Source: Vairimorpha necatrix (lineage: Eukaryota). From it: DNA of 64,000 nt. The notes beneath the pieces were generated by a model, which was given only the letters and a program-made list of their open reading frames with translations, did not search any database and was not told the DNA's origin. The stretch spans positions 248,001 through 312,000 of the forward strand of contig CP142726.1 in assembly GCA_036630325.1 (NCBI GenBank). Reading direction: 5' to 3'. A program made the position numbers and the translations under genes. Positions 1 through 58,135 of this stretch are shown in pieces. Numbering within the stretch: the stretch's first letter is position 1; every line of letters begins with the position of its first letter.

Positions 1-706
1 TATGTAACTACTTTTGATCGAAGAGAATATTATAATATGTGAAAGAACTTATTGACATCAAAGCTTTAAAAGATGAATTGACCATAAAATGTTATATTCC
101 ATAAATATCTTCTTAACACTTATGATCTATCATCAAATGAATTAATACAAAATTTTCAGATATATCAAACTGAAACAATATAATTTGTGGATGTGATCAA
201 TTGTATTTATTATAGGTGGTAAATATCTTAACCTTTGCTTATTTATATCATACTAGGTGCTTATTTTTAAGAATATAGAGATATAGCATGTTCACGGACA
301 TTATATAGTTTGACAATATAAAATTATAAAGTAAATATTAACTAACATGTAAGAAATAAGCACATAGGGAATAAATTTGTCAATGAAAAAATGTTTATAA
401 TTTTTATTAATCTTACTTTAAAACCTTTTTTAAACAAAAGTGTAAAAGTAAATTCGGAATATAGCACGAGTTGTCTTATAAAAGATCTATAGTATTTATA
501 TCTCATTAATTTTTCAAGTATATGCTATTTTATATACTTGACAATAGATTATTTTTAGTCGATTACCAAAACGAATATTTTTTATAAATTTATGTCGATT
601 TTTTAAGGACAATATCGAATATTTGTTATTGAAAAAACTATGATATTACAAGACTTTGATATTGCAATTATTTTATAACATACTCTCTTAATAAATCTTA
701 TTACTA

Positions 707-1231
707 TTAATAATAAATAAAAGAATCTAAATCTGGCATTTCTCTATTTAACTGTTTCTTAATAAATTTACATGCTTTTACAAGTGGTACAAATTTTTTA
801 TATGTATTACTAAGCCTCACCATTTCTTCATTAATAACCTTTTTATTACTTAAAATAAAAGACACAAATAGTATTTTATCATCACATATATACACTCCAT
901 CAAAAACTTCTTTAATTTTATCTTTTGTCTCTTGGCACACACCTTCTCTAACCATAAGTAAATATACATCAGTATTAATAATCCTCTTGATTAGGGGAAT
1001 GTGCTTTGTTTCTATGTTTATAAGAGAAGCCCATATGTCTCATGATTGGTGGGTTCCGCCTAAACACGATCCAGAAACCAATAGAAATTTAAATTTGCAT
1101 TTTGATATTGTAATACCCTCTTTAATAATTTTCATAAGAGCTTCATCGGAGAGATCTTTTGCCCAGTTCTTTTGAGATTTAATAGGAATTCTTTTAGTTG
1201 GAGATTTCTCTTTACTTTCTTTCATAGACAT
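707..1231 (-). pseudogene. Frameshifted hypothetical protein gene (~175 codons)
   Basis: CCC motif (GCCCTATAAAATG) precedes the ATG at 1231. The frame of ORF 707..955 stays open upstream to ~1060, so one frameshift joins it to ORF 1040..1231. Confidence 0.5.
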
Positions 1232-1340
1232 TTTATAGGGCTAAAACTATTTTTTAATTAATAAAAAAAATATTTTTTGTCTATTGACACATTTAATATT
1301 ATAAAAAATAAAGTATTTACGATTTTATAGAAATGAATGC

Positions 1341-4300
1341 TGTGGTCTGTTGGTTTCCCAACAGACCGAGAAGAATGTTTTAAACCATATTTTTTATTAT
1401 CCTTCATACCCTTCTGGGCATGAATTTCTTTTATGTTTGTCGGAGGGAAAATATACAATATTTTCCCTCCAAAAAACATTATTGGGAAGAGGAAGAGAAT
1501 ACTTATAGAATAGTATTCTCTGGTCTCCAGGGCAATCTTAGGACCACTGGAGAACTGTTCCTTGACACTCCCCCCTTCTTTATTGGCTCCCATGTTTCCA
1601 GCTCAAAGTCCATTTTTTTTAAGTCTTTCCCATTTACCTTAAACACGTCATTATTGGGATTTATTATCTCGTATGCACCTTTCCTCCCGACTTTCGTTAT
1701 AGTGTATGGGCCTTCAAATTTGCTGTCCAGTTTATTTCTAATGCTTATAGGTGGTTTTCTTCTTAATACCACATCACCTACTTGAAGTGCAAATTCTTTC
1801 CCCTCTACTATTTCCCTTTCTCTGGCCTCTCTTTCGGCTTGTAACATAGTATCACGGGTTTGCTTCAATCTTTCAAATATTAAAAAATTATCTTCTAAAC
1901 ATAAGAGTTCTCTTTCGGGATGCTCCCATAATAAGGGTTTCCGTCCGTATAATAATTCAAAAGGAGAAAATCCTGTCTTCTTCCTTGGAGAAATTCTGTA
2001 TGCGTACAGAGCCAGTTCCAAATATTCATCCCAGTCTTTCCACCTTCCATTTATCATTTTAGCCAGTTTTGCTACTAATGATTGGTTGGTTCTCTCTACC
2101 GTGCCATTGCATTGTGGGTGGTAAGCTGACGTAAAAGATTTCTTTATTTTAAATATTCCACATAATTCCTTGACCGTGTTGTTCAAAAATTCCAGTCCTC
2201 TATCTGATAGTAATTCGTTGGGCGGACCATGTCTACATACTATTTCTTCAAAAATAAATTTAGCTACCGTCTTAGCCGATTTATTTCTTACGGCTTTTGC
2301 TTCGCACCATCTTGTTAGATAATCCGTGGCGACTATTAAATATGTTTTCCCATTTTCCGACTTAGGTAGAGGACCTACCATATCAATTCCTATCAGTGAA
2401 AATGGGTCCTTGAGTCGAATTCTATGATGTTGCTTTGGTGTTCTTTTTAAATTAAATTTTAGACACACCTGACATTTTTCGAGTTCCTGTTTAATATCTG
2501 CGTACATACCTTTCCATTTTGTTTTATCGAGAACTAAAGCATATGTTGGATAAATACTGCCATGTCCACACTCTTCGTGACATTTTAAAATCATTTCTTT
2601 ACGACTCTCGGCCGATAATTCTAGTTCATCTTCATAATTTACTACATGAACAAATCTCGTTAGTCCGTCCGCTATAATGTTCTCTTTGCCTTTAATATAT
2701 TCGATGTCATATGAGTAGTTTTCGAGTGTGAGAATCCATCTCATTAATCTACCAGTGCTCTCTTTATAACTCAGCAGCCATTTGAGGGCTTGATGATCTG
2801 TTCGAATTGTAAAAGTATTTGTTAGGTAAATCCGGAACTGGGATATGCTCCATATTATTGCCAAGCATTCCTTTTCGGTTACGGTGTAATTAATTTCAGC
2901 AGTATTTAATTTCCTTGAGATAAAATATACGGGCATTTCAGTCTCCTCGTATCTTTGCATCAGTGTTGCTCCTATGTAAAGGTTGGATGCATCTGTGTAT
3001 AAGATAAATCTCTTATTGAAGTCCGGTAACTTGAGAACGGGAGAGCTCGTAATAATTTCTTTTATTTTCCCTACACTTTGTTTTGCTTCTTCAGAAAATT
3101 TAAATTTACCTTTCTTCAAGCAGTCATAGATAGGAGCCATTATATCTGTATAATTCCTTATAAATTTTCTAAAATAGTTTATGAACCCAATAAAGGCTCT
3201 AGTTTCTTTAAGAGTGGCTGGGATTTTTAAATTAAGACATTTCGTCTGTTGCTCAAGTGGTATACTTACTCCATTCTTATTTATCGTATATCCCAAAAAA
3301 TTTACCGTATTCTTTCCGATTTTACATTTTTTGTGATTAACTTTCAATTTCAATTTGTTTAAAATTTCAAAAACTGCTTCAATGTGCTTTACGTGCTCTT
3401 CAATCGATCTAGAGTATATCATAATGTCGTCTAGATATACTTGTACAAATTTATGTAGGTACGGAGACAGTATAGAATTCATTATCTTCTGGAATGTAAA
3501 GGGTGCATTCACGAGTCCAAATGGCATCCTAACCCATTGAAACGTTCCTGTCCTACTCCTAAAAGCTGTAAGATATCTATCTTTTTCCCGAATTCTTATT
3601 TGATGGTACCCAGATTCCAAGTCCAATACTGTAAATATAGATGCTCCTTGTAATTCTTCTATAGTTTCTTCTACAAGTGGAATAGGATAGATCATCTTCT
3701 TTGTGATTTTATTCAACCTTCTATAGTCTATGCAAAATCTAATATCACCATTAGGTTTCTTGACAAGAACCACCGGGGAAGTATAGTCTGATTCACTGTT
3801 CTCAATAAATCCTTTACTCAAAAACTCTTGAATCTTACTTTCAATAATCTCGTTTTGTTCTGGAGATCTTCTGTATTGAATATTTCTTACTTCCGAAAAG
3901 TCATTTGTTATTTCTATGGCGTGTTCAATATCTAAGCTTGATTTTAAATCATTATTGTAGAAAACAGCTGGATACTTTGAGATAAGTTTATTAAATTTTT
4001 CTTTGTCCTCCTGTGCCGTGTCTTCTTCTCCGACGTCTACAGTTTGAGTTTCGAGTACTTCGGGAGTTGTTGTGCAGACTGATTTCGTTATTAACGCATT
4101 TCTCATCTTATCAAGAATTTTGAGTAAGTTCAGATTTAGAACATCTGCGAGGCCAATAATAAGGTCTTCTGGTAAGTTTGCTACTACATGTGCTTCTACT
4201 ATTCTTGATTTCTTAGTTTTAGGCTCTTTGACACTAAATTCCACTATGCCTTCTGATTTCACTGTACCGCCCACTCCTACTATATTCAGCGTCTCTTTTC

Positions 4301-5349
4301 TTGGATTCAGACCCAATAATTGGGCTTTCTTTTTATTAATGCAATTAATTTCTGCTCCCGTGTCAATGAGCGCAGCAATCTTTTCTCTCCCTGAAAAAAA
4401 ATTAATCCTTGCTCGGACATCCGAAAAATTATCGTTTTTAGCCACTCTACCTATCTTTAAAATAAATGAAGAATTTGTCTGTACTGCTTTCTTGGGGACA
4501 GTTTTATATTCTTTCATTTCTTGACAGGTTACTTCATTCTGTGGCTTTTTATAAAAAGGTTTCCTTTTCTTTAGGTATTTATTTATTAAAAAATCCTTTT
4601 CTTCTACGAGTTCTAGTAACTCTATCCACTCTTTGGTTTCACTGATCGCCTCCTTTAATATCTCGGGGGAGTTTCTTCCAATCGCAATCTTAGATCTCTC
4701 AAAGTGCTCAATGCTTCCTTTAGCACACCTTTTTAGGTCATAAGCGTAACTCAAGATGTCGCTTTCCTTCGGACCCTCTACGTATAGGTGCATGAATAGA
4801 TCTGTTACGTCTTCCACTAGTTTTTTTTTAAGGTATTTTTTATTAAAGTGGGATTTGAATGTCTCGTAATCTACAATCTCCTCGCCCTCAAAAGCTTTAA
4901 ACCATTTCAACGCTTTGCCTTTTAGTTTTGACTTGGCAATATCTAGCGTCTTCGCTTGAGAGTACACATCTTCAATTTCTCGAAATTGAGACAGAAAGTC
5001 TTCGGCTTTGTTTAGATCTTCGCCGGTAAATTCTAACCATCTGTTCTGAAGACATAGTTTTTTCATTTGAGAAAGGATGTTGTCGAGATCATCGCTCTTA
5101 TCCTCATCATCGTTACCACCATTGTGGTCTGTTGGTTTCCCAACAGACCGAGAAGAATGTTTTAAACCATATTTTTTATTATCCTTCATACCCTTCTGGG
5201 CATGAATTTCTTTTATGTTTGTCGGAGGGAAAATATACAATATTTTCCCTCCAAAAAACATTATTGGGAAGAGGAAGAGAATACTTATAGAATAGTATTC
5301 TCTGGTCTCCAGGGCAATCTTAGGACCACTGGAGAACTGTTCCTTGACA
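1341..5349 (-). mobile_element. Intact Ty3/Gypsy LTR retrotransposon (4009 bp)
   Basis: Two 227-bp TG...CA LTRs (1341-1567, 5123-5349), identical by eye. 5-bp TSD AATGC (1336-1340, 5350-5354). PPT AAGAAGGGGGGAG next to the 3' LTR; PBS-like TGGTGGTAAC after the 5' LTR. Confidence 0.97.
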
Positions 5350-6134: not shown

Positions 6135-7115
6135 TCAAATACATCTGTACTTGTTTTTAAGGCGGTTGTTAGTAGCTTCTTTAATAACTTCTTCATTATT
6201 TTGAGCCTTCTCTTCTTTATCAACGCTTTGATTATAATTATTGCCTCCATTTGAACATTCTTTCTTCGCTGAAACTTCACAAGTTTCTTCCCGTAATTTC
6301 TGTCTTGATAAATCTCTTGATCTTAGAAATTTTTTTTTATTTTCGTTTTGGTCAAGTTTTTCAGTTGTAATTTGTTCATTATTTTTTGGATTTTTCCAAT
6401 CAAAAATTTCATCTTCTTCAAATTGTTTACTAAACAAGCGGCAACGTCTTTGCATTCGTCCTCTTTTATTATTTTTTGGAATAAGTTTATTAGAAACATT
6501 TATATCGTTTTCCTTATTGTAATATAAATCTTTTAAGATTTCTGTCGGATTATAGAATTTAAATTTTGCTATATTTTCATGATACGATGAGGAAATAAGT
6601 GGATACAAGTAATTCTCATTGTAATCATAGGAATCGCAAAATTCTAGTTTATAAAATTCTCTCTCTTTATGTAACACAATATCTTTACTTCTTGAATAAG
6701 TGTTTGCTGTTAGTAAATCCAAAGTTGTTACTCTATCAATACAGATTTTATTTTTATCATATGGAATCTTAGCCATTAGTAAACATTCACCACTTTTGAA
6801 TAAATCTGCTCTGGCTTTATCTTTTAGATTTAAAATTGAATGAAGATTCAAGAGATCATATAAAGTTCTTTTCTCTTCTGAAGTTAATGGCTTAAAAAAA
6901 TTTTGCATATAACTTTTACCTAGATCCGAACTTTTATCGTCGATATTTACAGAATCTTTTACGCAATCTTCAGCTGTTAAATCTGATATGAAATAAATCG
7001 CAGCCGGATCGGTTTGTTTTATATTTATGTAAATTTCGACATTATTTTCATGTGGAACTATAAATGCATCGTAAGTACTAAGTATTGCAGTAATATAAAA
7101 AATAAGAAATATCAT
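6135..7115 (-). CDS. Hypothetical secreted-type protein (326 aa), lineage-specific family
   Basis: Intact ORF, CCCC directly before the ATG, hydrophobic N-terminus MIFLIFYITAILST. Clear paralog at 22986-23594 (shared KICIDRVTT.DLLTANTYSRSK, DSYDYNENY). Confidence 0.85.
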   Translation of the reverse strand: MIFLIFYITAILSTYDAFIVPHENNVEIYINIKQTDPAAIYFISDLTAEDCVKDSVNIDDKSSDLGKSYMQNFFKPLTSEEKRTLYDLLNLHSILNLKDKARADLFKSGECLLMAKIPYDKNKICIDRVTTLDLLTANTYSRSKDIVLHKEREFYKLEFCDSYDYNENYLYPLISSSYHENIAKFKFYNPTEILKDLYYNKENDINVSNKLIPKNNKRGRMQRRCRLFSKQFEEDEIFDWKNPKNNEQITTEKLDQNENKKKFLRSRDLSRQKLREETCEVSAKKECSNGGNNYNQSVDKEEKAQNNEEVIKEATNNRLKNKYRCI

Positions 7116-7569
7116 GGGGTGTTCAAATAATTTTTTTTATATAAAAAAGATAAAAATTATTTCTAAGTTGTGTCCTTTTTCGAAATGTTTGACGTTAAAA
7201 AAATTTATTAATTTTTTTCAAGTCTACGAAACAAAATAGTAGTAAAAATGTTCAGCTAATTTTAGACATGTTATCTTTAGAATTTTCATTTATCAAAAAA
7301 AACATAATAACATGAAATTAATATCTATAATTTAGTTGGAATCTTTGTGAATGTATCTATAAATTTTTTTATAAACAAAAAAACAAATATTGATTTGTTT
7401 GACAGCCTTAAAGCCCATGAAAGACTTTTGACGGGTAATATAAAGTAAAAAAAATTGTTATTTATTTTTCATTCTGTGTTATAAATTTACTTGATAATTT
7501 TTATAATATCCTTTTTTAGAAATGCATACTAATATATATATTGAGTATAAAAAGATTTATTAAGTTAAT

Positions 7570-9575
7570 TTATAATTTAATTTAAATAGTCATAGCACAG
7601 CATTCCCAGGTATCGCTCATGGGATTCGACTCTTCCAAGACTTTGGTTTCTGTGGAATTATTTATGTTTTTCAACTCCAAATTTAAGCCTCATTCCACTT
7701 TGCCGACAACACCCATTTAACAGTCGCAATATTCGCTAGTGCGCTTACAGCACTAGCCGATTCTCCCTCTCAAGCATCCTCTTGGTAGTATTCTTAGAGA
7801 TGAACTCTAGATTCTTTTTCAGCACAAAAAGAATGTAGTATGATTTAACAGAAGTTAAATTACCAGCTTGATGTACTTTCTGTAATATTTGGTCTCCACA
7901 CCTCCCCATGTCATTACAAAAGGAACTATTCTCGTTCTTAATTTGTGTATTAGACCAGTAAATTTGCAAGGGTTATGTTTTCTAGTTTTAATTCTCGACC
8001 ATAATAGTAGGTACTGTTTGCATATATCAACTTCAACTAATGAACTTTCATTCCTTTTATCAAACACAAATATGTATGCTTATTATAGTTCACCTTTATA
8101 TTATGATCAACCTCTTATCTACTAATATTTCTGCTTGAACATTATCCGTGATCTCTTATACTGAATGCCTACGCATTTTCTTGCTCTTATAAACCCCATT
8201 TTTAATGCATAGTAAGAGATGAGATCATATAACGAACTCGTTGTGTCTTTTTATATAATAAATCCCGCCATTTAATCAAACTTGGTAGCTAAATGATTCA
8301 CGGTCTTCTTAAGAGATCAACAATGAGGACAGTGTCCCTTTTGTTTACAATAAATATTTCTATCCTGTGTGAAGCGGTAAATATTTTTGTATCTAGCCTG
8401 ATTATTTATTTTGACTAATCAGGCATAAGAGTCCCTATGTCTGCCTAATAATTGCCTTTGTCTTTAATTTCATTAACATAATTTATCCTTATGTCAATTT
8501 TGTTGTAAAGCGATTCTTTTTGGATTCTTTTAGCATCCTCTAGTGGCTCTCGACTTCAAAGCTATAGCTAATCCTAGATACTCGTTAAAAGCAAACAGTT
8601 TGGATTTTCTCTCTGCATCTACTTTAAGTATCGCTGCCCGCCTTAGGGGGCTGTTCTAGACTTATCAAATGTTTTATATATATTAGAAGCATACTTTCGC
8701 TTCTATTATTAATACTTATGAGGCCTCTTTTTTTTCAAATCTAGGTAGGTGTAGTCTTCCTTGCAGGATGGCTGTAGATGGACCTTGTACTTAACAACTA
8801 TCTGCCGGAGATCAAAATCGAGACTTTTATATCTTATTGATTCCAATTTTAATAATCCTATATGCTAGTTTTATACTAAGAATTGCATGCTCATGTATAA
8901 TTTGAATAATATTCTTACTATTCAATTACGTCTTGCACATTTTTTCAACCCTCTGTATTATTTCACTTCTTACTTTTTTAAGGGTCTCCCTTTTGATAGC
9001 ATCAGAGACATCATCTGTTATTCCTCTCATTTGTATCCTTGATGCTCTTTTAGTACCACTGCATCTTCACTACAATCACTTCCGTTAATTGGAGACTTAC
9101 CTCTGTGCATTTCGGAATCTACAGCGAGGAAACTTTTTAGTTTCCACATTCATCAGTTTCTAAACAACATCGTTTTCTACAGGGATCAAAATCATCATCA
9201 AATTGAAGATATTTTATTACATAAACACTTTCCTGAGTCTATATTTCCTTTTTGGTAAAAAGAATTCAGTTTCCTACTCAACGGATCCATACATAGTACA
9301 AACAAAAGCGGCAAATAGAGATTTTTTTGTAATACCCCCTTCGATCTTTCTATTCAGTATCGTTTCCGATCCTAATTTTATCTTGATTTGCAACCTTTAA
9401 CAGTAGCTTCTAAAATTTATTAGTTCGTTTTGGTTATTTAACTTGCTAATACTTTTTAATAGATAAAAATGGTCTACGGAGTCTTAGGTTTTCTTTAACA
9501 CAAAACACATAGTCTTTAGCTTCTTCCATTCTTCTTATTGACTGCTGTATTAATCATATCTTGTTGGTCTGAATA
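7570..9575 (-). mobile_element. Degenerate 5'-truncated non-LTR retrotransposon (RT plus restriction-like endonuclease type)
   Basis: Endonuclease-region remnant IVPFVMTWGGVETKY (ORF 7855-8067). RT remnant near 9480 is homologous to the DVKKAYDSVDH region at ~29460. Many stops and frameshifts. Confidence 0.75.
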
Positions 9576-9587
9576 TGTTTAATCATA

Positions 9588-12500
9588 TGTTATATATCCT
9601 TATTATTTTTACCCCTCATTATGGAAAATAAACACATGGGGGCGATACCAGAAAATGGGTCTACAAAGGAGGACCGTGGCCAAGAGGCTAGAATATTATT
9701 AAAAGAGGTTAAAAGGATTGTTTATGAGTTGTTTTTAGAGAAAATTGATGAGTGTGGATTTAAATTAGAAATTTTTAGGAGAGGTTCTATTTTATTGAGA
9801 AATTTTATTGTTGAGAGGATCTCGCAAGAGGGTAGTTGGAAGGAAATTGAGGAAAAATTAGAGTTGCTAGCTATTCAGGAGGAAAAGGAACAAGTGAGAA
9901 AAAAAGAATTTGAAGAGTTGTCCCTAGCGTTATGGGCTAAATTTGAGGAGAAGAATAAGTTGTCTCGTGAGGAAAATAAAAAGAATATGCGTTGCTACAA
10001 TTGTGGGAAGTTAGGCCATAGTGTTAGATTTTGTAGGGGAATGAGGCGAGATTCTGAAGACAGAAGAAATAAAAGTAGTTTTAATTATGTTGGTAAATGT
10101 AAAGTGCAATTAGACTTAGAGGGTAAATGTGATGACGATTTCAATTCGGACAAATGTGATTATTATAATGTTGATGGTGGGAAACGTAAGAAGAAAAATT
10201 TAGGGGATATACAAGATTATAGCAAAAGGGACAATAATAAGAGAGTTCTGTTGAGAAGGGATGTAAGAGGCATCGCGTATTTAGAGGAGATTATTTCACG
10301 GGTAGGAGGAAGAGAGGATGAAGATATTAGTTTTTGTAAGGTTGAAAAATGTATTATCAAGACTCAAGAAGGCAAGAAAGTTGTTAAAAAAGGGCAGGCT
10401 ATAGCTCAGGCTTTGTTGAAAAAGACGGAAGATTATATTAATAGTTTGGAAAGAAGAAAGATAATTAGAAGGTCGACATCTGACTGGAGAAATCCCATTA
10501 GAGCGATTGAGAAACCGAATGGTGATATAAGATTAGTAAGTAATTTAATTGCCCTTAATGACATTGTAGAGAAGGATCCTTATGAGTTAACTAGGATAAG
10601 AGATGTTATTAGAAGTACACAGGGATCTGAATTTTTTACCGTGATAGATCTAAAGGAGGGGTTTTATAGTATTGAGATTGAAGAGAAGGATAGGTTTAAG
10701 ACGGCTTTTGAGTTTAATAAAAAGGTATACGAGTGGAATTCGATGGTCATGGGGTTTAAAAACTCACCGCAGATATTACAAAGAATAATGAATGGGATTT
10801 TTGAAAAATTTATTGGTAAGGGAATCGAAATTTATATGGACGATATTGTGATTCATAGTAAGACAAGAGAGGGTCACGACAAATTGTTGAAAGAGGCTGT
10901 GGATATATTAGAGGAGAATAGTATGAAAATTAATTTGGCTAAGGTTCAATTATGTAAACGAGAGGTGATGTTGTTAGGAGTAACAGTTAATGGCAAGGAG
11001 ATACTGCCATCTGAAATAAAGCAAAATGAAGCGTTAGAATTTCCCAAACCGGAGTGTGTATCAGATGTTAGGAAGTTTCTTGGGCTGGCTGGATGGTTTA
11101 GAAATCATATTGATAATTATGCAAAACGTACATTGGCGTTGACGGATTCTCTTAAAGGACGAGGAAGTAATTGGAAATGGACAGAAGAAATGGAAAAAGA
11201 ATATATTAGTTTAAGGGAAGTGATTAGGGATTTAAAAGGTTTAGCAATTGTTAATTATAATAAGGAATTTTTGTTACGCACGGATGCGAGTAATGTTGGA
11301 ATGGGTGCTGTTTTAATGCAGGAAGATGATCAAGGTAATTGGGTACCAGTACAGTGGGCATCAAAAAAGTTTACGCCTACGGAAACGAGATATGGAATCA
11401 GTGAGAAGGAGATGTATGCAGTCTTTTGGGGAATTAAAAAGTTTGAATATGAACTACGCGGAAGAAGATTTAGGGTAGAAACTGATCATAAGGCATTGAT
11501 CGAGATTAGAAATAAACCAGCATTTAACAATAATAGAATTAACAGGTGGATTGAAAAGATTCAAGAGTTCGACTTTAGCATTGAATATAGAGAGCCTAGT
11601 ACCATGGTTGTAGCAGATGCACTGAGTAGGGTACATGAAAATGAGAAAACGCTAATGAATAAGGAGAGAAGTATTAAACAGGCACAGGGTAAATGGGACA
11701 AGCATGTTAAAGTTGTTGATGGGAAGGAAATTTGGGTATTTGACTCTGGTAGAGAAGCGGAGATTCCAAAGAAAGAATTGCGTGAAGGTTTAATTGTCAA
11801 TGCTCATGAAAATTTGGGACATAGAAGTTTAGGATCAGTGTACTATGCAATGAAGTTTGAATTTTATTGGCCGGGTATGAAGAAGGATATCGAGGATGTT
11901 TTAAAGAAGTGTGAAGTTTGCCAAATATATAATAGGAAAAAGAGTGGTGGTTGTGATTTTGTTAGTTCAAGATTTTATTTGGAAAAGGTTGCTTTGGATT
12001 TGATTGAGTTTAGAGTTTTAGGGAAATATGTGTTGGTCGTGATTGATTATTATACTAGGATCGTTTGGGGAAAAGTAATAGAGGACAAACGCGGAAGCTC
12101 GGTTGTAGGATTTTTAAAATAGTTGTGTGGATCAGGAATGAAACCGGTAGAAATAATTACTGACAACGGTAAAGAATTTAGTAATGAATATATGAGGAAT
12201 TGGTGTTCAGAGGAAAATGTATTACATAGGAAAGTAAGCGTAGAAAGTCATAGAAGTAATGGAAGAGTGGAAAGGGTAATAGGAACCATAAGAGAAGGAA
12301 TATTGAAAGATGATGCTGTGGATTTTGAAGCCAAGGTTAATAGATGTATATGGCGTTATAATAACAGCTATCATGAAGGGTTGAGATGTACACCGTTTGA
12401 GGCCTCAAGAGACGAAACGGGCCATGTTATGATCGAGAATGGACCTGAAGGATTTTATAGTAGGAGGTTTGTGGCTCGCAAAAGAGAGAAATTCTATAAA

Positions 12501-12772
12501 AGGTCAGAGAGTTAGGGTAGCGAAGAAAGAGAACTTATCGGGTTGTAGTAAGTATGAGAAAGGAAGGTTTTTAGGATATGGTGTTATCAAGGAAGTTTGC
12601 GGAGGTGACTCGTACTTAGTTAGTTTGGAAAATGGTAGGATCGTGAAAAAGCGGCATTATGATTTAAAAGGTCTGCTTGGGATTAATGAGTTCTAGTATT
12701 AGACTACCGTCTTGGAGGGGGGATGTTATATATCCTTATTATTTTTACCCCTCATTATGGAAAATAAACACA
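9588..12772 (+). mobile_element. Ty3/Gypsy LTR retrotransposon with 49-bp LTRs (3185 bp)
   Basis: Identical 49-bp TG...CA repeats at 9588-9636 and 12724-12772. 5-bp TSD TCATA. PBS-like TGGGGGCG directly after the 5' LTR; PPT GGAGGGGGGA directly before the 3' LTR. Confidence 0.95.
9621..12696 (+). pseudogene. Gag-RT-RH-IN polyprotein with one in-frame TAG (12120-12122) and one frameshift (~12500) in the integrase
   Basis: CCHC knuckle CYNCGKLGHSVRFC; RT IDLKEGF, MVMGFKNSP, YMDD; RNase H TDAS, EKEM, TDHKAL; integrase HHCC, ALD, TDNGKEF, VERV. ORFs 9621-12122, 12123-12515 and 12439-12696 are collinear. Confidence 0.93.
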
Positions 12773-12826
12773 TCATATAAGATTTATTGCTATGGGTGGA
12801 AATAATAAAAAAAAATAAGATCAACT

Positions 12827-21311: not shown

Positions 21312-22609
21312 GGCGCTACTTAAAAATTTGCACCCCCCTAAAAAATACGTTCACTGAAAAAAAATTATTTGGTATAAAATGAGATAAAATCAAATTTTAA
21401 AGGATTTATTTTCCGGGGGGTGCGAATTTTTAAGTAATGGTATTTTGAACGTGAAATTTTTTTATTTTATCTATCCCTTATAATGAACAGGATGATGGAT
21501 GAGATGCTTCAATTCAATCCATACAATCCTATTTTCACTGATAATGACAGGGCAATCGACTACGGATTGAAGAACAACTTGTTATATCCTTGTATTCCCT
21601 GTACTAATGATCAGTGCAAAGGAATTATGTTTATTCAAAACATATCTTTGTTTTCTCAAGGAAAGGGGTACAAATGTAGCAAAAAAAATTGTAAACGAAG
21701 ATGTTCATTAAATAAAGGTTCTAAATTTGAATCTTTAGATATTGAATTTAAAAAAATTCTTCGTTGCATTTATTATTGGTGTCTGTCATATACTAATTTT
21801 CAGGCCATCAACATGTGTGAAACTTCTGAACCAACATATATTTCTGTAAAAGAAATAATAATGGAAACAATTTCCAAGTGTTCTACTGTTGTTACAACGA
21901 TAGATGGAGTTGGTCAGAGGATACAAATAGACGAAACAGCTATTTGTAATGGAATTATAGTATCAAATCCGTCTAGTCGATTGGATTCTGAACCTGGAAT
22001 TCAGTGGATAATAGGAGGTGTATTGGAAGGAAATTGTAGAGAGTTTTTTGTGGAACTAATACCCAATAGAAAATGGGAAACGATTTTACAAATATTAAAA
22101 AAATATGTAAAAGTAGGCACGGATATAGTAACTGATGGTTATCCATCCTATCCACGTGCTATAAGTGAATTTGGTTCTCACCATAGTGTGGTAAATCACT
22201 CTATGGGATTTTGTAATGAAGAAGGACAAAATACAAATTATGTAGAAAATATGTGGTCGCATCTTAAGCATGATTATAGAAAGCGTGGTGGAATAAATAA
22301 AATAAGAATTAAATGTTGGTTAGATGAGTTTAAATGGAAAAAAGAAAATATAGAATATTCAAAACCATTAACAATCAAATTAGCCTTCGTAAAAATAATT
22401 GATATTTTTTCTATGTTAAAGTAATTAAATTTTTGAACTTATAATATGTTATAACTGTTTTTTTTGAATATTTTAACTTTTGTAAATTCATATTTTCATA
22501 AAAATATTGTTTTAAATATAATTTTAAGGGTTAAAAATATTTTTTTTTATATAAATTTAATTGGTCAATGTAATTTTTTTTAGGGGGGTGCGAATTTTTA
22601 AGTAGCGCC
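21312..22609 (+). mobile_element. Intact Merlin (IS1016/ISXO2-like) DNA transposon, 1298 bp
   Basis: ~34-bp TIRs GGCGCTACTTAAAAATT(T/C)GCACCCCCCTAAAAAA; perfect 8-bp TSD ACCTCATC. Confidence 0.95.
21483..22424 (+). CDS. Merlin/ISXO2-like DDE transposase (313 aa)
   Basis: N-terminal Cys cluster; QIDET, WIIGG, VTDGYPSY, VNHS.GF, TNYVENMW motifs; CCC before the ATG; lies inside the TIRs. Confidence 0.93.
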   Translation: MNRMMDEMLQFNPYNPIFTDNDRAIDYGLKNNLLYPCIPCTNDQCKGIMFIQNISLFSQGKGYKCSKKNCKRRCSLNKGSKFESLDIEFKKILRCIYYWCLSYTNFQAINMCETSEPTYISVKEIIMETISKCSTVVTTIDGVGQRIQIDETAICNGIIVSNPSSRLDSEPGIQWIIGGVLEGNCREFFVELIPNRKWETILQILKKYVKVGTDIVTDGYPSYPRAISEFGSHHSVVNHSMGFCNEEGQNTNYVENMWSHLKHDYRKRGGINKIRIKCWLDEFKWKKENIEYSKPLTIKLAFVKIIDIFSMLK

Positions 22610-22985: not shown

Positions 22986-23594
22986 TTAATTTCTTTCCAT
23001 ATTAAAATATGAATTAAGTAAAATTTCAGTTAAATTTTGAGAATTAAAAATTGCTAAATTTTTTTGATACGACGATGAAAGAAGTGGATACGAGTAATTC
23101 TCATTATAATCATAAGAATCGGCAAATTCTAGCTTATAAAAATCTTTCTTCTTTTGAACCTCAATTACTTTACTTCTTGAATAGGTGTTTGCTGTTAATA
23201 AATCCACTGTCGTCACTCTATCAATACAAATTTTATTTTTGATATATGGAATTTTAACCATTAGTAAAAGTTTACTTCTTTTAAATAAATCTACTTTGGC
23301 TTTATCTTTCATCTTAAACATTAAGTAAAAATTCAAGATATCATATAAGTCGTCTTTCTCTTCTAAAGTCAATGGCTTAAAAAAATAATTAATATGGGGC
23401 TTCTCTAGATCTGATCTTTTAATATTAATTGAATCTTTGACACATTCTTCAACTGTATAATCCGATATAAAATAAATTGCAGGTTGATCTTTTTGTTTTA
23501 TATTCATGTAAATTTCGATATTGTTCTCATATGAAACTATAAATATATTGTAGGTAGTAAGTATTGCAGTAATATAAAAAATAAAAAATTTCAT
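22986..23594 (-). CDS. C-terminally truncated paralog of 6135-7115 (possibly a pseudogene)
   Basis: CCCC-ATG at 23594 (MKFFIFYITAILTT). Collinear with the 326-aa protein until an early stop after ~202 aa. Confidence 0.75.
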   Translation of the reverse strand: MKFFIFYITAILTTYNIFIVSYENNIEIYMNIKQKDQPAIYFISDYTVEECVKDSINIKRSDLEKPHINYFFKPLTLEEKDDLYDILNFYLMFKMKDKAKVDLFKRSKLLLMVKIPYIKNKICIDRVTTVDLLTANTYSRSKVIEVQKKKDFYKLEFADSYDYNENYSYPLLSSSYQKNLAIFNSQNLTEILLNSYFNMERN

Positions 23595-24457
23595 GGGGTA
23601 TTTAAAAAAGTTTTCAAAAACTATCATTAAATAATGTCACTTTTTGAAATAAATGTCAAAATAGCTTGAAATCTTCAAAATGTAGATAGCTAAGAATGCA
23701 ATATTATTGTTAAGATTTATTCTGATTAATAAATTTTAAATTTATCAAAAACATAATAAGAAAAAACCATTAGCAATGTTTTTTAGACAATAAATTCTGA
23801 CAGTGTAGCTTTGAGTTTTATTGGCCATCTGAAAAAATTAAATTTTTGATTGGCGACAAGAAAAAATCAAAAACTTTTGACAGGTACTATGATTATAGAA
23901 AAAAAAAGTTGTATAATATTTGACGTAGACTAACATAATAATTTTTTTTAAAAATTTTAAGCCAATTTGTTATACCATAATTTCTTATCAATTTAGATTG
24001 TTAATGATAAAAATAGCGTCTAGTGTAATTGAGGTTGAAACTTCAAAAAACCATAAAAATGTTATGTTAAATATTTATTATTCCAAAAACATGATTCTTT
24101 CTCAGATAAACACCGTAGTATTCGCTAACTTGTGTTAGAGTTCTGTATCCACTAAAGTTATATCTTATACAAGAAAATCAAATATAGCATAGATACGAAA
24201 ATGAGGAGGAGGGATACCACAGACCTTCCCTCTTTTGAGGGTGTTCACTGTATTTTTTTTTGAACTCCAGAAACGAAGTGCAAGATAAAGGAGAAGCAAT
24301 CATTAGCACTCAAATTACTTGCATATTTAAACAGTAAAAATACCAAATTAATATATATTTGTATACAAAATTTAATTTAAAAAAGTAAGATAATCATAAA
24401 ACTATATTATGTTTAATAACTATATGTTGTATATTAAATTTTTTGATTGGACAATCT

Positions 24458-36972: not shown

Positions 36973-37757
36973 TTTTTTTCTTGCAAATAAGAGGTAGGGA
37001 GAAACCTTACATAGGAACCAGAGGGATTTGGGTGTGATCCTCTTTCAACTGGTACTGTGAGATTCTAACTGACTAAAACTCCCCCCACACAACTTGCTGG
37101 TGCAGTAAGCTCCGCCGTATCCCTTGGACTTGCGCTCCAGGAGAACACTTTCCATTTATACCTCGAATCGCGTCAGAGTGACCTCACGGCGGATATACTT
37201 AACGGGCATGGTTATCTATAACCCGAGGAGAGACATCATCGTACTGACTCAAAGGTCCCTACAATCATCCGTATTGCACACACGGCTCCTTACACGACCA
37301 CACCCCAGCCCGACGTTTTTATTGGGCTGCTTTGACCACCAGTCTTCCACTAGTTTCGGCCACCGTGTTACAAAATCTTATAGGATAGGGTCCACGAGAC
37401 CTTCTATTGCCCTACTTCGTCTGGTCTCTTAGTTAGCATTAGGATCCCACTCTAGAGTGCACCAGCCATGGGCTCCAACTAGGCCGTACTCATCAGATAC
37501 TTTTATGTATCATTAAGTCACCAAGGGGTGATACTGCTTTTTGGCTTTGAGATGCGTTTCTACACTAGATGCTAATCCCTTGTGGCTGGACACACACAAG
37601 TTTCAATGAATCAACTTAATGATTATCGTGGACATTTTTATCATCTGAGTTGTTCCAACTGCATCATAGAAAGTAGAAACAATTTTGTGCCCCTGGGAAT
37701 CGAACCCAGCCATTGCTCAATGGAAGCATTGCATTCTACCACTGTGCTAAGGGCACC
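36973..37757 (-). mobile_element. tRNA-headed SINE-like family 1, copy A
   Basis: Head 37687-37757 with A-box TAGCACAGTGG, B-box GGTTCGATTCC and acceptor-like GTGCCC/GGGCAC pairing; A-run tail; full-length similarity to 56901-57687. Confidence 0.88.
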
Positions 37758-42097: not shown

Positions 42098-42836
42098 AGT
42101 GCACTTAGCCAAGTGGTCGAAGGTGATGCTTCCATTTATAATTTAGGTTCAAATCCCAGGGGCTATAAAATTGGTTCTAACTTTTTATGATGCAGTGAAA
42201 ATAACTCAGATGAGTAAAAATGTCCACGTTGATCATGTAGTTGAATCGATGAAACTTGTGTGTGTTCAGTACGGGGGAGGGGGTAGCATCTAGCGTAGAA
42301 ACGAACACAATGCTGAAAAACAGTATCATCCTTGTGGTGACTTAATGATACATAAAAGTATCTAATAGGTACGGCGTAGTTAACCCCCAGTTGATGCACT
42401 CTGAGTGATCCTAGAGCTAACTAAGAGACTATACGAAGTAGGGCAATAGAAGGTCTCGTGGACCCTATCCTATAAGATTCTGTAACACGGTGGCCGATGC
42501 CAGTGGAAAACTAATGTTCAACACAACCCAATAAAAGATGCGGGCTAATGATATGGGCGCGTAAGGAGCCGAGTGTGCGATACAGATAATTGTATGAGCC
42601 ATTGGGTCAGTACGATAATATTCCTCCTCGGGTTAAAGATGACCAAGCCCGTGTGTATATCCGCTTTGGGGCACTCTGGATGCGAATTGAAGTATTAATG
42701 GAAATTTTTTTTGGAGCAAAGTCCATAAATACGGCGGGCTTGTTGCAACGGTATGTTTTATAAAGGGAGTTTTGCGAGTAAAAATCATAAAGTACAGTGG
42801 ATAAAGATCACACATGACCCCGCTTTTGATCCTTAT
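42098..42836 (+). mobile_element. tRNA-headed SINE-like family 1, copy C
   Basis: Head TAGCCAAGTGGTCGAAGG...GGTTCAAATCCCAGGGG; long blocks identical to the reverse complement of copies A/B (GGTGACTTAATGATACATAAAAGTATCT, GTAGGGCAATAGAAGGTCTC). Confidence 0.85.
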
Positions 42837-51837: not shown

Positions 51838-52321
51838 CGCCTTATATTATATACTATTATTTAGAAAAGCAAGAAAATTTGAAGCAGAGGTCTGGCCATG
51901 CCTTTCGTGTCAAAATCCGACCATTTAATGGTCTTTTGATTTACACGATGAATACGCACTATTAGCGTGTTGGGACAAGTCCTTAACATAAAAATTAAAT
52001 TATAATTTTTTAGAAAATAATGTTGTTAGTTGCTACAAGAATAAAATTGTAATTTTAACATTTTAAAGCAATTTGTTTTGTTCTTTCGTTGAAGAATTAT
52101 AATTTTATTCTAAAAGGGGTCAAATCTTTGCATGTCAAATTTCTCAACGCCTGTCAACTATTTTGACGAAGAATATTTAATAAATAAAATATTTGAAATG
52201 TTAAAAAAAAAGAAGCTTAAGTTTGCTCATTTATCATAATTTTAAAGTTTAAAGAAACTATACAATTAATTCATAACTTTTTTTTTTTATATAAAAGAAA
52301 AAAATCTTTAGCAGCCCCAAA

Positions 52322-54172
52322 ATGGAAAAAGAAACTAAAACACTGGAATTTGAAAATTTATATCTTGATGTACCAAATTTCGATCCCAATGGACATATCT
52401 CTTACACTAGAGTTTTTAAATCTTTATCTGGGAAAATTGAATCTGGGAAACTTACAGCTGTACTTGGTTCTTGTGGTTGTGGTAAAACTCATTTTCTTAG
52501 AATGCTTGTTGGTGATATCAATGAAGAATCAAAAACATTTGGTAAGATAATATACAATGGCGAAGAAAGAGACCCAGAAGAATGGAAATCAAAGATTTCA
52601 TATGTTCCACAGGATGATATATTTTATCCTCACTTGACGATTTATGATCATATGAAATATTATATGTCACTTGGGGAAGCAAGATATCGTAAATTTGACG
52701 AACGTAAAGCCGACAAGATACTTGAAGGATGCGCCATATTGCATTTAAAACATAGTCTCGTTGGTGCACTTTCGGGAGGTGAACGCAAGCGAGCTTTAAT
52801 CTCTTTTTCTATGATTAATGATCCAGAAATTTTAATTTTAGACGAACCTACAACTGGGATAGATTCAAATGCAGCAGTAGAAATCATCCACACACTTAAA
52901 AAGTATGCGCAGGACTATAATTGTATGGTTATATCTGCAATACACCAACCTAGTGCCGGTCTTTTCAGCCACTTTGATGATTTAATTGTATTAGTGAAAT
53001 TAGGAGTATTTTATATTGGACCATATAAACAATTAGAATCTTTTTTTGTCGAAAATGGGATCTCTATGGAATCTGACTTATCTTTGCCAGAATTACTGTT
53101 TGTCATTTTACTTGAATATTCCGAATTTCCCGAAGCTACTAAATATAAATCGAATGTCAAGAAAATAATAGAAAAAAATGAGCAATCATGTAGAAGTGAA
53201 AATACCGCAGAAATATGCAATAATTACAAGCCCATTGATTTTAAACACAAATTTGCTGATAGCTGGAAGGTAATGAAACATTCCTTTAATACTACTTATA
53301 ACAAAAACAAATCATATTTTGTTCTTGTCTTAATGTCGTTTTGGACAATCTTATTAATTTTAGCGGAGCCAATTATGCATTTCTGCATAGTCCCTCGATA
53401 TAATCATTTGGAAATTCATGAAGAATTGAAAAAATGTTCTTTTGATCAAATATTCAGTTTAAGTTTTGGTATAGTCAATCATTTATATAGTTTATCTGAT
53501 TATGTCTGGTCACTTTATTCATACACAGGTGTATGGAAGTACAACCATTATTTTGCTCCCGAATATTTGAACGGTAAATACACATATGGTACGTATTTTA
53601 TGGCAATGTTCTACTATTGTCTAATCAGAAATTTTATGTTCTTTTTTTCTAAGTTCTGTTTTTATCTTTTATTTTATAAGACTTTTTTGTTCAATCCACT
53701 AATATTTTTAATTTTTGCTATTCCTACTATTATTAATATTTTTTTATACACTTGTATGTCTATTGCAGTTGAATATGATGCGATCTATATCTGGGTGCCT
53801 ATGCAATTAGCACAAGTTGGACATAAAATGTATGACCACAACTATAATAATAATGTTGCGTATATCCATTCAATCATCCCAAACTTCAATTTTATACTTT
53901 TTTTAAGGATGAGATGTTTTGGATTATTGGAAAAATTTAAAAATATGTTAGCAATTTCTGAATTTCTGAGTAAAACAATTAATAATGAAATTATCAACTA
54001 CTCATATGAAGAAGGTGCAGCAAATACTATTTTATACAATACTTTTGGTAAATGGGCAGATTTTATTACAGTTTTCACTATGTTTGGCTCTTCTTTGTTG
54101 ATGATTGGCGCTGTAACAGTACTTTATGAAATTAACAGAATTCCTAATATGAGATTTAAATTATCAAAATAA
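52322..54172 (+). CDS. ABCG (White-family) half ABC transporter, 616 aa
   Basis: Walker A GSCGCGKT, Q-loop YVPQDD, signature LSGGERKR, Walker B ILILDEPTTG, H-loop IHQP, then hydrophobic TM segments (NBD-TMD order). CCCC before the ATG. Confidence 0.95.
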   Translation: MEKETKTLEFENLYLDVPNFDPNGHISYTRVFKSLSGKIESGKLTAVLGSCGCGKTHFLRMLVGDINEESKTFGKIIYNGEERDPEEWKSKISYVPQDDIFYPHLTIYDHMKYYMSLGEARYRKFDERKADKILEGCAILHLKHSLVGALSGGERKRALISFSMINDPEILILDEPTTGIDSNAAVEIIHTLKKYAQDYNCMVISAIHQPSAGLFSHFDDLIVLVKLGVFYIGPYKQLESFFVENGISMESDLSLPELLFVILLEYSEFPEATKYKSNVKKIIEKNEQSCRSENTAEICNNYKPIDFKHKFADSWKVMKHSFNTTYNKNKSYFVLVLMSFWTILLILAEPIMHFCIVPRYNHLEIHEELKKCSFDQIFSLSFGIVNHLYSLSDYVWSLYSYTGVWKYNHYFAPEYLNGKYTYGTYFMAMFYYCLIRNFMFFFSKFCFYLLFYKTFLFNPLIFLIFAIPTIINIFLYTCMSIAVEYDAIYIWVPMQLAQVGHKMYDHNYNNNVAYIHSIIPNFNFILFLRMRCFGLLEKFKNMLAISEFLSKTINNEIINYSYEEGAANTILYNTFGKWADFITVFTMFGSSLLMIGAVTVLYEINRIPNMRFKLSK

Positions 54173-56158
54173 ATAATTTACACTAACCTGTAAAGTTTCT
54201 TATTTTTTTGACCCCGTTTCGTAGTTTTGAGATTCCCGAACTAATTGATTTGGGTTGTTTTGTAAAACATTGAAATGATTTATGCGGGATTCTACCACAT
54301 AATTGTCACATTTTTTTATTTTTTATTTATTTCGATATTTAGCAAACATGAATTTTTTTAGGAATGAAAAATATTCAAAGAAGGGCACGTTAAAATAAAT
54401 GAACAATAATAATTACTACTAAAATAAAAAAAAGCATGGGAATCACAAAGAAAATTTCTAACATCAAAAAATAAACCTACATTCTCTCCCTATTGGAGCA
54501 ATATTTTCGTTTTGGCTCCCTCCTAGAAGGTATCACAGAAGCGTAAACAAAGACAGGAAGAAGATATTAAAATAAAAGTTTCGAAGATTTTGGTATTTGT
54601 TATGATGGTAAAATTGAAAATAAGGGAAGGAAATTATTCAAATTAAGTCTACCAGTAGATTTAAAAAGATAAAACATAAGAAACAGTTTTTAGAGGGAAA
54701 AACAAAACAAGATAAAAGAAAAAAAAAATTAATTAATTAGAAGAATTGGAAGGAAAATTTACAGAAGTCTTAGTAAAAGACGAAAGGAAATAAAAGTTTT
54801 TACAAGGGGAAAATGTTCTATTGATACAAAACAAGGAGTAAATGTAGTTTTGGGGGACAAAAATATTTTCATGATCTAGTGTAAAGTTAGAAAAGTATAT
54901 TAATTTATTAGAAAGTAAAGGTATTATCAGAAGGACAAGAGTGAGTGGAGAAGCCTAATAGGGGCCATAGAACCCCCGAATAGAAAAGTGAGATCGGTAA
55001 GCAATAAATGGCTTTAAATAAACTGGTGAAATGGAAATGTACGAATTGCCACTAATTAGAGACATTATTAGAGCACCACAAGGTTCTAAAGTATATAGGA
55101 TTATAGACTTAAAGTAAGGATGCTTTTATATATAAATTGAAGAACATAACAAATATAAGGCAGAGTTTGAGATAAATGGTAGAGTATTCAATGGAATAGT
55201 ATGGAAATGGGATTTAGAAATATCCATATTATGCAAAGATTGATGGACGCAGTTTTAGATAAATTTAGAGGCATGGCTGTTGAGGTGTACATGGATGATA
55301 TTATTATTTAAGCAAGAGATAATGATATAAACGATAATATTTCACAACATGTAATTCGGAAATTCAAAGATCGTGAATTTAAAGTAAACATAAAGAAGAC
55401 ACAATACAAATTAGGAGAAGTGAAACTACTTGATATAACAATTTACTGAGAAGACATCAAACCAAACAAAAATCAAGCAAGAGACAAAAGAACACAAAAG
55501 GCCTAATAACATAAAAAAGCTTAGAATATTTTTAGGGTTATCGGGCTGGTTTAAAGATTTTATTCCTCATTGAAATTATCGGACAGCACGACTTACAGAA
55601 GCACTGAAAAAAAGATGGTAAAAAGGAAGGGCCCGAAGCTATGGAGAAAGCCTTTATGGACATTAAAGAGAATTCAAGGGGCATGAAAAACTATAAATTG
55701 TAGCCAGTTAGGTAATTTTTGGAGTGCAAACGGACGCATGCGATACGTTAATTGGAGCAAAACTAATGCAAGAAGACGAGAAACAAGGAAGGTGGATACC
55801 GATACAATATGCATCAAAAATGTTAATATCAACAGAAAAAAGATATATAATCAGTGAAAGAGATGATGGCAGTGTTATTTGGAATAAATAAATTCGAGGC
55901 GGATTTACGCGAAATTTCATTTAATGACAGATCATATTACTGACCGAGCTTAGAAACAACCCGTCTTTATAGTAATAACAGAATTAATAGATATATAGAA
56001 CATATACAAGTGTTCGACTTTACCATTGCATAAGTAAAAGGACAAATGATGATGGATGTAGATGCTCTTAGTTGAGAATTTGAAAATAACGAGTGAAAGA
56101 AAAAAGCGAAAGAAAACTACAGACGAAAAAAAACAGATGAAAGGAAAAGAAATAAAGC

Positions 56159-57790
56159 GGAACATTTCCGCTTTACACACCTTCCCTTACATATAAAAAT
56201 ACTAATTTTTAAAAAAAATCCCTGATTTTGGAATTCGAAGCGGACAGAACGAAAAGGAGAAAATCTAAAAAATAAATATAACAAAACAATATAATAACTG
56301 AAAATAAACAAATTATATTTTTATTTTTTTTTTGTTTTTTTATTTTATTATCTACTTGATTAAATCTGTACTTTTATGCATTTATCTGGATAATAATAAG
56401 AAATATTACAAAATATATATAATGAATATGAACATAACTTAATTATAATGTTATAAATTAAAAATAATAAAAACATATATTTATATTAATTATGTAATAA
56501 ATATCACATCATTTTATCTTTTATAGTTTACAATTTATGTGTAATATAATACATATGAATGTTTTAAAAAATACGAAATTTTAATTCTTCAGTCGTCTCT
56601 AAAAACCAATAAATTAACAAAACTACTAATATAATATACATAGTAAAAAATAATAACAATCAAACCTAAAATCTGTTTTAAACAACATATAACACATGAA
56701 AATATTATTTTAAGCATTAAAATCAAATTCCAATGACATAAGAATTAAATTTGTTTTTATGTATTTATACTTCTAAACAAACACAGATCAGAAAAAGCAA
56801 TTATTGAATTTGTTTTGTTTTATATTTTACATTTAATATGGTCAAATTAGAACTTATTAAAACTATTTTTTTGTACTTTATAAATTATTTATGTTCTCCT
56901 TTTTTTTTCTTGCAAGTAAGAGGTAGGGAACCCCCTTACATAGGGACCAGAGGGATTTGGGTGTGATCCTCATTTAACTAGTACTGTGAGATTCTTACTC
57001 ACTAAAACTTCCTCCATACAACTTGCCGGTGCAGCAAGCTCCGCCGTATCCATTGGACTTTGGCTCCAGGAGATACTTTCCATTTATACCTCAAATCGCG
57101 TCCAGAGTGACCTCACAGCGGATATACTTAACGGGCATGGTTATCTATAACCCGAGGAGAGAAATCATCGTACTGACTCAAAGGTCCCTACAATCATCTG
57201 TATTGCACACACGGCTCCTTACACGACCACATCCCCAGCCCGGCATTTTTATTGGACTGCGTTGACCACCAGTCTCCCACTAGTTACGGCCACCGTGTTA
57301 CAGAATCTTATAGGACAGGAACCAAGAGACCTTCTATTGCCCTACTCTGTCTAGTCTCTTAGTTAGCTCTAGGATCCAACTCTAGAGTGCACCAGCCATG
57401 GGCACCAACTAGGCCGTACCCATTAGATACTTTTATGTATCATTAAGTCACCAAAGGGTGATACTGCTTTTTGGCCTTGAGATGCGTTTATACACTACAG
57501 CTAATCCCCTTGTGGCTGGACACACACAAGTTTCAATGAATCAACTTAATGATTATCGTGGACATTTTTATCATCTGAGTTGTTCCAACTGCATCATAGA
57601 AAGTAGAAACAATTTTGTGCCCCTGGGAATCGAACCCAGCCATTGCTCAATGGAAGCATTGCATTCTACCACTGTGCTAAGGGCACCTTTTATTTTCTCC
57701 TCCTTTTTTTACATTCTGGTTTTACAAAAAAGAAATATATTTTCAAAAATTGGTATTTATATATGTAGGGGGATGTAAAGTGGAAAGTGC
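56159..57790. mobile_element. Non-autonomous TIR element with 9-bp TSD (MULE-type), carrying SINE-like copy B
   Basis: TSD AAATAAAGC (56150-56158, 57791-57799); imperfect TIRs (TTTCC(G/A)CTTTACA...TACATATA). Removing the insertion restores the host frame MKGKEIKHMMKREGK. Confidence 0.8.
56901..57687 (-). mobile_element. tRNA-headed SINE-like family 1, copy B (with TSD)
   Basis: tRNA-like head 57617-57687; A-run tail; 13-bp TSD TTTAT(G/T)TTCTCCT at 56888-56900 and 57689-57701; paralogous empty site at 48235-48247. Confidence 0.9.
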
Positions 57791-58135
57791 AAATAAAGCA
57801 CATGATGAAAAGAGAGGGGAAAACCTCTGGAAGTTCTCAACCGGAAAACTTAAAGAAATACTACACAAAGAACAAGAGAAACAGAAATTTGTAGGGTTAT
57901 GAGGGACTAAATCATCGAGGAGTTAAGGGAACACATTATAAGATTAAACAAAGATGGTTTGGCCAGATATAAAGGACCAGAAAACTACAACAATATAAAT
58001 CTGTAAAGTATGTAACATTAGAATCAGAAAACCGATCAGAGGATGCAATTTTGTAACAACACTTAAGAAATTAAGGAAAGTAGCTTTAGAAATAATGATA
58101 TTGGTAAAAAAGAAAGATACATGCTAATAGGAGTA

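Follow-up and report, generated by a model that had tools for sequence, protein, structure and literature searches.

A Ty3/gypsy-derived retrotransposon clade of microsporidia without an aspartic protease, and a putative internal polyadenylation signal behind its Gag region

Organization of the Element

The window (64,000 nucleotides of Vairimorpha necatrix; GenBank assembly GCA_036630325.1, contig CP142726.1, positions 248,001 to 312,000) contains an LTR retrotransposon of 3185 bp at 9588-12772. Coordinates are those of the window, and all features of the element lie on the plus strand. Identical 49-bp LTRs with TG...CA ends bound the element (9588..9636 and 12724..12772), and the target-site duplication TCATA at 9583..9587 is repeated at 12773-12777. 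The 5' LTR holds a CCCC motif (9612-9615), an ATG (9621-9623) and an AATAAA close to its end; PMC2803860 describes a CCC-like motif ahead of the ATG and 5' UTRs of <7 nt as microsporidian features. Transcription would start from a host-type promoter within the 49-bp LTR. The primer-binding site (9637..9649), which doubles as codons of the element's frame, is complementary over 13 nt to the 3' end of tRNA-Pro(AGG), CCA included, and the partner is a tRNA gene of the same genome (L149). An 11-mer from this site occurred 111 times in that genome, against 0 for the control. A polypurine tract (12714..12723) lies ahead of the 3' LTR.

One frame, opened by the ATG inside the LTR behind the CCCC motif, spans the knuckle, reverse transcriptase (RT), RNase H and integrase; the first-pass annotation was right to describe Gag and RT as a single uninterrupted ORF (frame 9573-12122). 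The encoded parts are a single four-helix capsid (CA/SCAN-fold) lobe (residues 21-89; 9681..9887; pLDDT >90), a charged helix extension (9888..9986), a single CCHC zinc knuckle (9993..10034), a 99-residue linker (10035..10331; pLDDT <50 over most of its length), RT with its lead-in and thumb (10332..11255; YMDD at 10833), RNase H (11256..11570), and an integrase with H2C2 finger, DDE core and C-terminal beta domain (11769..12700). In the window copy two lesions disrupt the integrase, a TAG at 12120-12122 and one extra base near 12498. A KR-rich basic patch in the linker (10180-10200) has counterparts at homologous places in many members and is possibly a nuclear localisation signal.

In the AlphaFold model, residues 21-89 fold with high confidence into a bundle of four helices, and a helix runs on to residue 122 (73-122 in the model). 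The best compact fold matches were capsid lobes, with middling scores: the Arc C-lobe (Z 6.4, rmsd 2.6 over 64 residues), the RSV CA-CTD (Z 5.5) and the HIV-2 CA-CTD (Z 5.2). We revised the CA-CTD assignment that these matches suggested, since by sequence the lobe aligns, with weak but consistent scores, with the first lobe of two-lobed relatives. The second capsid lobe of those relatives has no counterpart here, and the long helix takes its place.

The Protease Is Missing From a Whole Clade

The first-pass annotation had proposed that this lineage lacks an aspartic protease, noting fewer than 100 mostly charged residues and no D[TS]G motif between knuckle and RT. From the end of the knuckle to the F of FCKVEKCIIKT at 10332 there are indeed 99 residues, although their charge was slightly overstated (45% D/E/K/R, versus 35% in the whole frame). 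No D[TS]G occurs in any forward frame of the knuckle-to-RT stretch. A Pfam search of the linker returned no family up to E 10, searches with the linker alone found no family, and the AlphaFold models showed it as disordered, with no retropepsin fold. A fold search with residues 1-257 gave no match at E 0.001 in PDB or BFVD; no protease was among the matches listed, a result that leaves room for one.

A search of the same genome (G000) gave 54 matches, the best 23 being family copies at 98.8-100% DNA identity, each with its own flanks. The whole 1024-residue frame is present in 14 of these 23, and the LTR pairs are identical in 20. The element is young and the family recently mobile. The same build recurs in four further subfamilies (54-67% identity), where knuckle and lead-in are 81-98 residues apart; between subfamilies the linker (81-100 residues) cannot be aligned. 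In a further family, G, the frames are 1003-1006 residues long. These intact copies and relatives of the same build rule out a private protease deletion in the window copy. One family A copy (L058; G000:C1:533738-536748) has the LTR and primer site but carries an internal deletion, its gag start running into the RNase H region.

In the protein database, 259 matches were obtained among 7998 scored candidates, and we examined the best 120 of the 259. The best 43 proteins (367-2288 bits) stand clear of the others (<=287 bits); source names of relatives include Nosema, Vairimorpha and Enteropsectra. A search of IMG/VR gave no relative. Within the 120, a Pfam protease family was assigned to 0 of the top 43 and to only 24 of the other 77, and 4 of the 43 are N-terminally incomplete and thus uninformative on this point. 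Because these labels alone are weak, we built a custom profile from 25 local proteases, which recovered 17 of 17 held-out controls at 14.9-64.6 bits. All 56 clade proteins scored <=1.5 bits. A protease in another frame or strand was rejected by a six-frame search of the element with this profile (best score, -1.5 bits). Two motifs in single members, a DTG in the P0011 linker and a DSG in P0007, were discarded as too near the RT lead-in or within low-complexity sequence. Peptidase_A17 matches appeared in 4 of 41 members; the two that were located both fall on the RT-thumb/RNase H region.

Could a highly diverged protease nevertheless be hidden at the conserved WxFDSG or within the linker? For this copy, length by itself is not enough to exclude one, because the distances are close: from knuckle to YxDD there are 266 residues here and 284-311 in the seven tightest protease-bearing relatives (210-220 in the shortest clade members), and the linker is just 20-45 residues shorter than in compact protease-bearing relatives. 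Among the Atlas clusters nearest to residues 1-257 are Gag-protease proteins, at a score of 0.84 that lies under the Atlas line of 0.9. The sole D[TS]G of the element, a DSG at 11742, is kept in 5 of 5 subfamilies. However, the full-length AlphaFold model places this DSG in a beta-hairpin just before the integrase zinc-finger helix; protease-bearing sisters have a similar hairpin sequence at their integrase lead-in, and within the clade the motif varies (DNG, DDG, DTG). The linker is unalignable and shrinks to ~45 residues in relatives, and neither the profile scores nor the family searches favor a protease there. We regard a hidden protease as largely refuted and its probability as very small.

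The other gypsy elements of the window had been said to keep the protease motif. This is clear for LIDTGA at 4370 (63.7 bits) and also seen near 33076 (13.8 bits), with weak matches near 38268 (7.4) and 51564 (4.7). The element with LIDTGA is intact (1341-5349, minus strand), with identical 227-bp LTRs and a 1288-residue frame. A decayed, interrupted relative of the protease-less clade, with RT, RNase H and integrase pieces, lies at 54811..58097 on the plus strand (RT/RNase H match at 54811-56087, 35-44% identity). It had been cited as a second case with no protease trace, and no match above 3 bits does lie ahead of its RT, but its decay has gone too far for it to serve as evidence.

An RT-RNase H tree built on 44 chosen rows groups the 23 protease-less ones in a single clade (support 97/84), and its sister is a group of four protease-bearing rows, P0145, P0153, P0196 and P0208 (99/98). 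One row, P0147, is N-terminally truncated and uninformative on the protease. Across 28 rows that share 41-60% identity, every catalytic residue of RT, RNase H and integrase is invariant except the Y of YMDD, which is nearly so. A recently mobile, Ty3/gypsy-derived microsporidian clade has, we are confident, lost its aspartic protease once. The lineage claim of the first-pass annotation is thereby supported: the linker showed no retropepsin fold, and none of the close relatives carries a protease at that position. P0126 and P0146, which branch deepest among the protease-less rows, have a longer Gag that lacks a knuckle, so that protease loss may precede Gag reduction. Clade members L093-L096 come from contigs of MAGs labelled Clostridium and Turicibacter, probably through binning contamination, and in L091 and L092 an RNase H piece of another gypsy element stands in frame upstream, from a nested insertion or an assembly chimera.

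In its paired TG...CA LTRs, short target duplication, tRNA primer site, polypurine tract and Pol order of RT, RNase H and integrase, the element agrees with Ty3/gypsy elements; it departs from them in the absence of a protease between Gag and RT and of a two-lobed capsid. Its RT is nested among protease-bearing elements of gypsy domain order, in trees without a named reference element or a copia/BEL outgroup. Because no protease lies between Gag and RT, we file it as gypsy-derived and not as a canonical Ty3/gypsy member. Non-autonomous LTR elements (TRIM, LARD and TR-GAG types) depend on helpers, and their RT and integrase are missing or decayed. The present family does not fit the latter trait, with conserved catalytic residues and 14 of 23 copies intact. 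As a single ORF in a microsporidian host, it does resemble the single-polyprotein gypsy groups 1-3 of Parisot et al. (2014).

A Putative Poly(A) Signal Behind the Knuckle

A putative internal poly(A) signal lies within the linker at 10068..10088: AATAAA at 10068-10073, a 12-nt spacer, and an in-frame Tyr codon, TAT, at 10086-10088. At the protein level this reads NK-x4-Y, which occurs in 20 of 44 post-knuckle stretches, in otherwise unalignable sequence; other spacings occur 0-4 times, and 5000 shuffles gave a mean of 1.2 and a maximum of 6. At the nucleotide level, six of the nine lineages with DNA have A(A/T)TAAA-N12-T in frame and no more than 60 nt from the knuckle, versus 0.26 expected. 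Five of them (A, B, E, F and L091) have AATAAA-N12-TA(T/C). Family G has ATTAAA-N12-TTA, which encodes different amino acids (IK-x4-L), so the constraint looks nucleotide-level. The pattern was defined post hoc, after lineages A, B, E and L091 had been seen, and the lineages are related, which makes these chance figures optimistic. AATAAA is also the commonest spelling of NK in these frames (26 of 45). The pattern is absent from lineages C, D and L093, and 16 of the 44 proteins do not have even a relaxed form of the motif, including the whole P0016-P0030 subgroup. In that subgroup (P0016, P0017, P0020, P0023, P0026, P0027 and P0030), a conserved xTFDRV-type helix stands behind the knuckle instead of NK-x4-Y.

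The residues around the Tyr (SFNY|V, GSNY|L) resemble retropepsin sites, which counts against the poly(A) reading. AAUAAA and AUUAAA are described as stochastically recognised poly(A) signals of Encephalitozoon cuniculi (PMC2803860); a search of the literature gave no hexamer-to-cut distance for microsporidia. A host gene in the window, an ABCG-type transporter at 52295-54172, provides an example of signal and stop together, its stop overlapping AATAAA.

We looked at contigs of four public runs on the element, with no DNA run alongside; that these runs are RNA is a guess. In run X5, contig depth was 76.8 at 9651-10063 and 3 at 10092-10350, and in X8 it was 20.9 at 9681-10039 and 2.7 at 10095-10480. 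In run X1 the depth was 747 in gag and had dropped to 56-69 by the 3' end, with no break at the signal site, and X2 gave a single flat contig. The fall in depth across the site in X5 and X8 is a weak hint in support of the internal signal. No loose end of A's was seen in the contigs of the four runs, and a search of the genome for retrocopies of a poly(A)-tailed Gag message gave 0 matches.

A distant protease-bearing family (L066, L071-L074, L077, L154-L156) has an in-frame AATAAA-N12-TA 57 nt before its protease motif (NKTDLVY). Of ~9 protease-bearing families examined, two have an in-frame signal within 300 nt of the protease; this is near chance for a 300-nt window, and we treat it only as a lead. 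The signal, judged from these patterns, may predate the loss of the protease.

Discussion

We put at about one half the probability of the following explanation as a whole: a single loss of the protease, a Gag message made by polyadenylation, and a fusion protein that works uncut. Most transcripts would be cut and polyadenylated 13-14 nt behind the A(A/T)TAAA just after the knuckle. Because the cut would fall behind the T or TA of an in-frame codon, the poly(A) tail would complete a TAA stop, and the short mRNA would yield free Gag of ~155 residues. Recognition of the signal would be leaky, letting a minority of transcripts run through to full-length RNA, which would be both the genome and the message for a Gag-RT-RNase H-integrase fusion. 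The fusion would enter particles by its Gag end, with the disordered linker as a tether. The motif is present in the DNA, and its use to make a short Gag mRNA is, in our judgment, probable. The first-pass annotation had offered two options, a polyprotein that works unprocessed or a protease borrowed in trans; it missed this third one, in which a conserved poly(A)-type signal inside the element would free Gag with no protease involved. Such a signal would account for free Gag, not for RT or integrase.

As to whether the fusion works uncut, Ty3 and Tf1 protease mutants are not known to transpose, which speaks against it. In its favor are the conserved catalytic residues, the joint between RNase H and integrase, a charged helix in the model, and the finding that uncleaved Gag of protease-mutant Ty3 builds a mature-like shell (PMC6525542). 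On balance we lean slightly toward uncut function. We rate as less likely than not, at about one chance in three, the full claim of an autonomous protease-less element of 3.1-3.2 kb with 49-bp LTRs, made up of a one-lobed Gag from a tail-stopped short mRNA and an uncut Gag-RT-RNase H-integrase chain.

The NK-x4-Y motif could instead mark a retained Gag/Pol cleavage site, with the element a protease parasite whose polyprotein is cut by a co-resident gypsy protease or a host retropepsin. Potential donors are plentiful: the protease profile matches the genome at 150 or more places, many of them within frames of 1260-1340 residues, and the intact gypsy element at 1341-5349 is one candidate. NK-x4-Y stands at the ancestral Gag/protease border, is followed by L, Y or V in 14 of 20 cases, and also precedes the protease in P0225, P0188 and the L066/L071 family. 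What a cleavage site explains less well is the fixed N-K spacing six residues upstream, the free spacer residues and the IK-x4-L/ATTAAA variant, all of which better fit a nucleotide signal; nor does it predict the depth step in the runs guessed to be RNA. The one-lobed Gag also differs from helper capsids, so co-assembly is not obvious. We therefore consider a protease parasite unlikely. A mixed scheme, in which Gag comes from the short poly(A) message and a protease acting in trans releases RT and integrase from the fusion, would draw on all the evidence for the internal signal together with the same supply of proteases, and the RNase H end DALSR[IV][YH] is retained as in protease-bearing relatives. 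The model, however, shows the joint to be cut (residues 666-695) as a long charged helix, and inspection of 37 rows by eye showed no conserved hydrophobic site there; we rate this scheme as distinctly unlikely. There may also be no separate Gag, the full fusion alone forming a small capsid-less ribonucleoprotein while the motif damps expression or binds a protein. The single capsid lobe and the lack of the signal in about one third of members would suit this, but damping needs no in-frame T at +13, yet a spacing of 12 is the most frequent (6 of 9 lineages), and we think it quite improbable.

Among known elements, Aalg retro L of Anncaliia algerae is closely comparable, at 3127 bp with a 50-bp LTR and one ORF at 32-3049 (Parisot et al. 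2014, PMC4202319). Like our element, its consensus start, read by eye, has a start codon inside the LTR and one knuckle followed by AATAAA-N12-TAT. A probable clade member was already tabulated, unremarked, in the supplement of that paper, whose main text mentions only a single polyprotein and does not use the words "protease" or "proteinase". The sisters P0145, P0153, P0196 and P0208, nearest in the RT-RNase H tree, differ from the element in having a protease directly before the RT lead-in helix; P0145 and P0153 share its integrase lead-in hairpin, and P0145 has a two-lobed Gag, unlike the element. Ty3 of Saccharomyces cerevisiae uses a +1 frameshift and has 340-bp LTRs. This member of the Metaviridae shares LTRs, a tRNA primer, the RT-RNase H-integrase order and one knuckle with our element but has two capsid lobes and a protease (PMC6525542). 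The RT model matches Ty3 RT at E 1.7e-31. DIRS elements and non-LTR retrotransposons also replicate without an aspartic protease; they differ in having no DDE integrase, other termini, and Gag or ORF1 as a separate frame. A parallel to the proposed Gag message comes from the plant Ty1/copia element EVD (shGAG) and Drosophila copia, single-ORF elements in which a short RNA, polyadenylated early, serves to produce Gag in excess (Oberlin et al. 2017, PMC5580714). Those elements retain the protease and obtain the stop through splicing and a frameshift, whereas the present scheme calls for no intron and the tail would supply the stop.

In the proposed explanation, the internal signal may be what rendered the protease dispensable, given that a protease-bearing family of this genome shows the pattern too. 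The protease is held to be necessary for maturation. It is also counted among the standard Pol domains of LTR retroelements (PMC12440569). A clade that still copies itself without one means that the enzymes can function while joined in a single chain, or else that families can share a protease. Known routes to Gag excess include frameshifting, read-through, Pol degradation and splicing (PMC5580714); the internal signal, if real, would be a further route. We found no description of a gypsy clade lacking the protease, or of a Gag stop created by polyadenylation, in literature whose coverage left out most subscription journals and Repbase.

Other Features of the Window

A dispersed repeat ending in a tRNA-Met gene occurs at 36973-37757 and 56902-57687 (~90% identity), and an inverted copy lies near 42215-42652. 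The decayed relative is interrupted by one copy of this repeat and also contains a MULE transposase at 58185-59473. A Merlin/IS1595-type transposase lies at 21438-22424. The ORF at 6135-7136 matched no Pfam family; it and the ORF at 22986-23636 (minus strand) are paralogous, ~80% alike in DNA, with a hydrophobic N-terminus.
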